Shown here: piece by piece, positions 36,404 through 37,153 of the stretch | Layout of the letters: the number at the start of each line of letters is the position of its first letter | Position numbering within the stretch: the stretch's first letter is position 1 | NCBI GenBank assembly: GCA_041661245.1 | Contig: JBAZUY010000002.1 | Location: 178,153 to 242,152, forward strand | From: an archaeon | Lineage (GTDB): Archaea > Iainarchaeota > Iainarchaeia > Iainarchaeales > JAAZKV01 | Length of the DNA: 64,000 bases | Direction: 5' to 3' | The notes under the pieces: model-generated | The model's database searches: none | The model's input: the letters and a program-made list of their open reading frames with translations, nothing else | Told to the model about the DNA's origin: nothing | Program-made: the position numbers and the translations under genes

Positions 36404-37153
36404 TTAAGTCAGTAGACCTAAATTTCTAAGTGCTTTTACAACTTGTTTTATTGTATACCCATCAAAAGTGGATGCATCATTTACTGCAGTACCTGAACCA
36501 GCTACAAATGTTGCTGCAGCTCCGGAGGTTGTTGGCTTTACTACTGGAGTTGCATTAAAGAAACCAATTTTGTCTGCGCTTGGATCTGTTGCAATTAAAT
36601 TTATGCTTGTTGTAGTTCCTTTAACTTGAAAAGCACCAACTGTTGAAGAAGTACTTGGAAGACTGTTTACTACTAACCCGCAGGAAATAGAAGATTGCCC
36701 ACTTCCACCAGCAACTGTTAAAGTACCTGAACTAAAAGTTAATCCGGAATTAGCTAATCTTCCTTCAGCAGTTCCAACAGGAATTGTTGTTGAAGAAAGA
36801 GCGGAATCAACTAAAGCTATTTCTTTTCTTGCAGCACCAGTGGTGATTGTTGCATACAATTTATCGGTTTGAAATTCAACTGCCCCAACTTCGGGGGTAT
36901 CCATTACTGTTCCGGAGGTAAACTTTAATGGAGCTGTTCCTGCAGCAGTTGTACCTGCCCTTAAATTTAATGTTCCTTCAGAAGTAGTAGAGTTACTTCT
37001 AAGAATTACTCCGCTTGCATTTGCTACTGAACTCAAGCCAACTAAACCAACCCCAATAGCTGCAGCACCAATAGCTGCTTTCTTCAGGGAATCTCTTTTA
37101 GAAACATCAATTGTTTCAGGAATAGTTAATTCTTTCTCTACTTCACTAGACAT
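36404..37153 (-). CDS. Tat-like (KR) signal peptide protein with a tail-fibre-like mature domain, operon head 2
   Basis: Signal SKRDSLKKAAIGAAAIGVGLVGLSSVANA|SG. The mature part contains PLKFTSGT..GAVEFQTDKLYATI, IGFFNATPVVKP and the C-terminal YTIKQVVKALRNLGLLT. Confidence 0.6.
   Translation of the reverse strand: MSSEVEKELTIPETIDVSKRDSLKKAAIGAAAIGVGLVGLSSVANASGVILRSNSTTSEGTLNLRAGTTAAGTAPLKFTSGTVMDTPEVGAVEFQTDKLYATITTGAARKEIALVDSALSSTTIPVGTAEGRLANSGLTFSSGTLTVAGGSGQSSISCGLVVNSLPSTSSTVGAFQVKGTTTSINLIATDPSADKIGFFNATPVVKPTTSGAAATFVAGSGTAVNDASTFDGYTIKQVVKALRNLGLLT

Follow-up and report, generated by a model that had tools for sequence, protein, structure and literature searches.

An archaeal genome of the DPANN type contains, at 36404..37153 (minus strand) of the 64,000-nucleotide stretch of DNA analysed here (the window), a gene for a 249-residue protein, P0001, in which the first-pass annotation saw sequence signatures of phage tail fibres behind a cellular export signal. 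The locus raises the question of whether P0001 is phage hardware taken over by the cell, a product of convergence or a component of a virus, and of the route by which it would reach the cell surface. The reading frame is real: the list of open reading frames and the translation give the full 249 residues, and the three motif strings on which the earlier suggestion was built are all found in it (residues 75–114, 195–208 and 228–249).

The local features fit P0001 as the start of a transcription unit, given a Shine-Dalgarno sequence GGTGA (37158..37162, minus strand, 4 nt from the ATG at 37153), a TATA-like ATTATATA read approximately 54 nt 5' of the ATG (37207..37214, minus strand), which is a candidate archaeal promoter, and the 220-bp intergenic stretch that separates the gene from a divergent gene pair. 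The stop codon is followed by a 52-nt spacer with a T-run and then by the gene of a 699-residue beta-helix protein devoid of a signal (34252..36351, minus strand). From comparison with its homologs, P0001 can be divided into a leader (residues 1–47; 37013..37153), delimited by the leader alignment (A4) and the TIGR01409 score, a post-leader segment (residues 48–59, SG followed by VILRS...; 36977..37012), defined by alignment and by the trimer model, module A (residues 60–146; 36716..36976) and the variable linker module M (residues 147–192; 36578..36715), both from the homolog alignment, and module C (residues 193–249; 36407..36577), a conserved C-terminal cap the final helix of which lies on the trimer axis in the model; all these segments are on the minus strand.

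A fibre ending shared with environmental phages

An exhaustive HMMER search with P0001 gave 4672 cluster representatives at E ≤ 1e-3, of which 1501 remained at E ≤ 1e-10 and 32 at E ≤ 1e-30. In at least 26 homologs the last approximately 190 residues align end to end with residues 60–249 of P0001 (alignment A1), the proteins being 204–1099 residues long and nearly all of at least 500 residues; in the 28-row end-to-end alignment the mean column identity is 46%. The best end-to-end E-values, down to 1e-56, indicate common descent, namely capture, so that of the two origins initially proposed, domestication or convergence, the former stands and the latter is ruled out by the end-to-end homology.

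The genes of the homologs lie in recognizable phage surroundings. That of P0163, in the structural module of an SU10-like podophage, comes after genes for a portal and a capsid of the SU10 type and after large tail genes, with holin and lysozyme genes downstream; P0040 is encoded on a 127-kb phage contig together with phage lysozyme, ribonucleotide reductase, Thy1, MazG and RecA; P0146, the gene of which is near that of an M23/PG-binding lysin, has a region of the collagen triple-helix type on the N-terminal side of these modules. In IMG/VR, at least 229 viral contigs with homologs were confirmed by a pattern scan, and the clusters nearest to P0001 in a protein atlas are all viral (scores below 0.9, to be taken as a lead only). 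Among 50,697 GenBank phage records, from cultured phages, module C was found solely in Cyanophage KBS-S-2A and module A in none. Thus, the proposed recurrence of the signatures in phage proteins holds for the tail fibres of uncultured environmental phages and not for well-studied minor-tail proteins, with the KBS-S-2A protein as the one match. The additional suggestion that they recur in orphan proteins of small-genome prokaryotes finds a faint echo in two Saccharibacteria MAG contigs that carry module C, and no further genome of the archaeal phylum of P0001 carries both A and C. When a narrow module-C pattern was run over 185,579 species-representative genomes, seven loci were obtained, all in bacterial MAGs, and none of the six with a complete 5' end has a signal-like N-terminus. 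The mature part of P0001, with its modules A and C, has no family in Pfam, PHROGs or NCBIfam, and a P0001 profile search of PDB sequences returned nothing.

The modules differ in conservation. The mean identity of P0001 to phage-type rows is 51% for A, 20% for M and 59% for C, the latter reaching 65–88% in many individual matches. Module A, present once in P0001, occurs in 1–9 copies per protein among 262 fetched homologs, as expected for a fibre-shaft repeat, and in 124 of 126 proteins from the same set no more than 3 residues separate module C from the C-terminus. Its strong conservation among phages that presumably infect different hosts is hard to reconcile with host-specific receptor binding by module C, and a role in trimerization or docking fits better. 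The variable module M, on the basis of its sequence, is the best candidate for the specificity determinant; it is 57% identical between P0001 and its metagenomic ortholog P0004, and a common version of it is found in P0001, its paralog P0002 and the metagenomic P0005. In 10 of 31 viral loci (IMG/VR L034, L041, L043, L045, L048, L060, L062, L072, L085 and L093) the gene of the module-C fibre is directly followed, 10–32 nt past its stop codon, by a gene for a conserved protein of approximately 102 residues, which may act as an accessory protein or tip partner of the fibre, as yet undescribed, and could explain the conservation of module C; no homolog of it was found in this archaeal genome. As a side observation, the metagenomic P0047 (255 residues) joins an N-terminal part of DNA polymerase A to module C, and is likely to be a frameshift or an assembly chimera on a T7-like phage contig.

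Export signals are not unique to P0001 within the family. Sec-type signals are found on approximately 17 of 265 fetched homologs (6%) and on approximately 6 of 65 IMG/VR reading frames with a complete 5' end, overall approximately 6–9%, so that the modules have evidently passed between fibres of phages and cellular proteins that are secreted. Module A is present in all 23 signal-bearing homologs, and only P0249 among them also ends in a divergent C-like module. Signals are nearly always missing from the viral homologs, and the P0001-type KR leader is absent from every one of them as well as from the 23 proteins with Sec-type signals. Only P0001 and P0004 have to date been seen to combine the leader with a complete A-M-C ending; P0004 is 70% identical to P0001 overall and is the only one of the fetched homologs to carry the P0001 leader. 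From the anatomy of its homologs and this distribution, P0001 can be described as a fibre ending in minimal form placed behind a leader.

The first-pass annotation had proposed that structure prediction be searched for a trimeric fibre. The AlphaFold2 monomer of P0001 is poor (mean pLDDT, 59.8; pTM, 0.29), too poor for claims on the fold to be drawn from it, and Foldseek gave no match for it at E ≤ 0.001 in PDB and BFVD, the weak BFVD rows, with KBS-S-2A among them, being driven by sequence. Three copies of residues 49–249 were modelled together, in three runs with three controls and an alignment built in this analysis, and yielded an intertwined homotrimer with an ipSAE of 0.87 (runs, 0.86–0.88) against 0.00 for the best control, a partner pLDDT of 88–89 and a between-run contact agreement of at least 89%. 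In calibration, 20 of 30 true pairs reached the ipSAE mark, as did 1 of 23 single chains; these counts are only a rough guide here because a custom alignment and three copies were used. Approximately 800 inter-chain contacts are predicted over residues 59–248, the pairs of lowest error involving the C-terminal helix (235–247) and the strand 196–201, with module C contacts such as 235:235, 238:239 and 242:238, and residues 49–58 make no confident contact. Independently of the model, the collagen segment of P0146 requires three chains in that homolog. The prediction for P0001 is an intertwined homotrimer and not a globular monomer; together with the extensive viral similarity, this is the opposite of the pairing, no similarity to viral fibres and a globular monomeric fold, that had been named as speaking against a fibre.

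The leader and the Tat genes

The P0001 leader consists of a 25-residue charged n-region that ends in KRDSLKK, an 18-residue Gly/Ala-rich h-region and the sequence ANA, followed by SG. It has the form of a Tat-like signal, with a long n-region, a weakly hydrophobic h-region (mean hydropathy, 2.16) and an A-x-A c-region. Similar leaders precede different mature parts in a set of ten proteins from five related genomes, which are 5 of the 215 genomes of the phylum and belong to one family and two genera. In this genome of 1.31 Mb the leader is found on P0001 and on two other proteins, both encoded in the window (28482–29009 and 45794–46450), and nowhere else. In the alignment of the ten leaders R20, L23, K24, K25, G34, G36, G39 and S41 are invariant, and N45 and A46 nearly so. 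The residue that precedes R20 is Lys in eight leaders and Phe in two, so that a twin arginine is absent throughout. The TIGR01409 profile scores 15.4 bits against the P0001 leader, with a cut-off of 16.7, and the match covers profile positions 7–29 of 29, namely those after the RR position; Pfam TAT_signal does not match P0001. In a regex scan of the genome no convincing canonical RR signal peptide was found, and a divergent signal-peptidase-I-like reading frame is present, with a score under the model cut-off.

The translocase genes are close by. Family searches identified TatC (39424..40122, minus strand), the sole copy in the genome, and TatA/E (40127..40321, minus strand), both 2.3 kb from P0001. 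TatC is present in 7 of the 38 genomes of the family, including all five with the leader, although these related genomes are non-independent samples, and a leader gene and TatC lie on one contig in three genomes (G000, G126 and G133). The leader is best read as a single-arginine Tat-type signal for a private set of substrates, which would be exported in a Tat-dependent manner and may be cleaved. Caution for a KR leader comes from haloarchaeal Tat-fimbriae, in which changing RR to KK abolished assembly (PMC12337348).

TatC itself is found in two forms. A long one with an N-terminal cytoplasmic extension is present in G128 and G137, and a short one that starts at the first membrane helix in G000, G126, G131 and G138 (loci compared: L109 and L110 versus L111, L112, L113 and 39424–40122 of the window). 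A joint loss of the leader arginine and of the TatC N-terminus is not universal, since KR leaders are also found in G137, with the long form.

The gene cluster

P0001 belongs to a 22.7-kb block flanked by genes for an XPD helicase and GrpB. The block contains three units, in each of which a leader-bearing head comes first and is followed by 2–5 beta-helix proteins lacking signals. Besides P0001, the heads are the protein encoded at 28482..29009 (minus strand), which shares the leader of P0001 but not its mature part, and P0002 (45794..46450, minus strand), the leader of which has FR in place of KR. The C-terminal 47 residues of P0002 (172–218) match the end of phrog_17312, annotated as ‘tail protein’ (1.7e-10), which suggests that each head carries a different phage-fibre ending. 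The order of head and beta-helix genes is also found in G133, in G126 (L013) and beside P0004, where the following reading frame is 42% identical to the 699-residue protein of the window. Residues 48–59 of P0001 are kept in the leader-bearing heads and missing from the phage homologs.

Pilin-like proteins with N-termini resembling class III (archaeal pilin-type) signals adjoin leader-bearing heads at 37377–38385 (plus strand) and 46440–47288 (minus strand), and similar proteins are found beside heads in the relatives G133 and G138 (L011 and L014), one of them overlapping the start of the head gene. Between tatC and the divergent pilin-like pair there is a gene for a Bro-N domain protein (38461–39423, plus strand; phrog_8036 match, 1.3e-87), a mobile, phage-associated gene within the cluster.

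The GC3 value is 0.16 for P0001 and 0.16–0.18 for the three head genes (28482–29009, 36404–37153 and 45794–46450), with 0.22–0.27 for the neighbouring host genes. P0001 is therefore as AT-rich as host genes, or more so, which argues against a recent import. The low values of the head genes may reflect a codon bias due to high expression. Elsewhere in the assembly, contig C4 (6712 bp) has a GC content of 67%, to be compared with 34.5% for the genome, and is probably a binning contaminant.

Proposed function and alternative readings

Taken together, these data lead us to propose, with moderate confidence, that P0001 is a phage-derived tail fibre in minimal form (modules A, M and C), in which the attachment part has been swapped for a lineage-specific Tat-like leader and which is exported by Tat for surface attachment; it would probably be captured phage attachment hardware displayed on the cell surface. 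In the proposed sequence of events three chains would intertwine and fold in the cytoplasm, with nucleation at the C-terminal cap, and the folded trimer would pass through the TatA/TatC translocase encoded 2.3 kb away. The leader would then be cut after ANA, or be kept as a membrane anchor, and the fibre, with the beta-helix proteins of its operon, would be displayed on the surface of the DPANN-type cell, where it would serve in attachment to a host cell or to a polysaccharide surface. P0001 has no N-terminus for attachment to a tail or baseplate, its gene is outside a virion structural module and its leader lacks the RR of a canonical Tat signal, yet it is predicted to work both as a fibre and as a Tat substrate.

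The block could instead be the part of an archaeal virus, integrated or decayed, that serves receptor binding, with P0001 a virion fibre or a virus-encoded membrane protein, a reading that we consider unlikely. The homologs of P0001 are overwhelmingly viral, the Bro-N gene lies inside the block, and an IMG/VR record classified as viral (L115, IMGVR_UViG_3300000553_000245, 1–11088; 37% GC) contains four tandem beta-helix genes, three of which have a repeat micro-ORF after them, in a cassette layout like that of the P0001 cluster. The C-terminal domain of the L115 proteins is 49% identical to that of the beta-helix paralogs of the window. Given these relatives and the shared layout, the whole block could be viral in origin. 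However, L115 has no relative of P0001 and a CheckV completeness of 9%, and Pfam and PHROGs searches of the larger reading frames of the 64-kb window matched no capsid, portal, terminase or integrase, nor any sheath, tube or baseplate protein. The window also lacks tRNA genes and the 22–50 kb block flanking repeats, the sole TatC of the genome is inside the block, the GC3 is host-like and the leader family is kept across two genera. With TatA, TatC and pilin-like genes nearby and no virion core genes detected, the local setting looks cellular, which supports the first-pass annotation on this point.

The route of export is the other point at which the reading may fail. The N-terminus of P0001 might be a conventional Sec signal or a signal anchor that is not cleaved, in which case the proximity of tatAC would be coincidental. 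This reading would agree with the lack of RR, the sub-threshold TIGR01409 score, the plain Sec-type signals of some homologs and the documented ability of archaeal pilins to switch between the two types of signal (PMC12337348). We regard it as improbable, since the leader resembles a Tat signal in its long n-region, its Gly/Ala h-region of weak hydrophobicity and its invariant R-x-x-L-K-K, TatC accompanies the leader in every leader genome and is physically linked to it in three, and chains exported unfolded would, in the absence of periplasmic chaperones, not readily assemble into an intertwined trimer. A sharper form of the preferred reading, of rather low probability, makes the head trimer a carrier that binds the signal-less beta-helix proteins in the cytoplasm and takes them through Tat. 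The make-up of the three units and its recurrence in G133, G126 and next to P0004 speak for it, as do residues 49–58, which are conserved but for which the trimer model shows no confident contact. On the other side, beta-helix genes do not regularly follow the module-C fibre genes of phages, and a trimer of 699-residue chains would be a very large Tat cargo. It can also be envisaged, somewhat speculatively, that the three heads are addressed subunits of a new archaeal surface organelle, for which TatAC would export pre-assembled complexes of fibre and signal-less beta-helix proteins, and the conserved free strand behind the cleavage site would dock on the pilin-like proteins or on the membrane.

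Whichever of these details holds, the proposal of a phage-derived fibre exported by Tat can be set against known systems. By sequence the closest is the tail fiber protein CPKG_00003 (YP_007674976.1) of KBS-S-2A, a siphovirus of sequenced genome (PMC3751600), which at 271 residues is near P0001 in size and has the same module C ending (68–71% identity over approximately 55 residues; E, 9e-15), its gene being placed directly after tail genes, but has a phage-type N-terminus and neither leader nor module A. The fibres of uncultured Caudoviricetes (500–1200 residues; e.g. P0163 and P0146) are 42–48% identical to residues 60–249, with the same module order and module C terminal, and differ from P0001 in their long N-terminal shafts and attachment parts, several copies of A, lack of the KR leader and location in virion structural modules.

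In export logic the closest system is that of the haloarchaeal Tat-fimbriae (Tafi), which, as proposed for P0001, are archaeal surface filaments made of subunits with Tat signals that are exported folded (PMC11821415, PMC12337348), and the loci of which also encode beta-helix tip or anchor proteins (bioRxiv 10.64898/2026.09.13.751334). Tafi subunits, however, are strand-donation pilins with a true RR, whereas P0001 would be a trimeric fibre of the phage type, has KR and is encoded by a DPANN-type archaeon; the two showed no relation in sequence, the mature part of P0001 has no Pfam or NCBIfam match, and the predicted trimer argues against a pilin. R-type pyocins and eCIS are also cases of cells that keep phage fibre proteins for their own use, but the fibres of tailocins and eCIS stay on a co-encoded tail or baseplate and are released by lysis with no export leader, whereas P0001 has a leader and no such genes were matched among the larger reading frames of the window. 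A third system close in kind is Tat hitchhiker export, as in E. coli hydrogenase-2 (HybO-HybC), where one subunit bears the signal and signal-less partners travel with it as a folded complex. Hitchhiker complexes are redox enzymes, whereas the partners of P0001 would be tailspike-like proteins, their binding to it being putative.

Quite apart from P0001, modules A and C are abundant among environmental phages and are represented by no Pfam, PHROGs or NCBIfam family and by no sequence match among solved structures. Little is understood of how DPANN archaea recognize their hosts and stay attached to them. If receptor-binding modules of phages have indeed been captured and placed behind an export leader, the heads described here would be named, testable candidates for DPANN adhesins, Tat-dependent surface structures, so far described in halophiles only (PMC12337348), would extend past that group, and the leader would be a natural single-arginine Tat-like signal tied to a private translocase. 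Should the three heads prove to be subunits of one organelle, a DPANN episymbiont would have a phage-style, exchangeable receptor-binding kit for attachment to its host.
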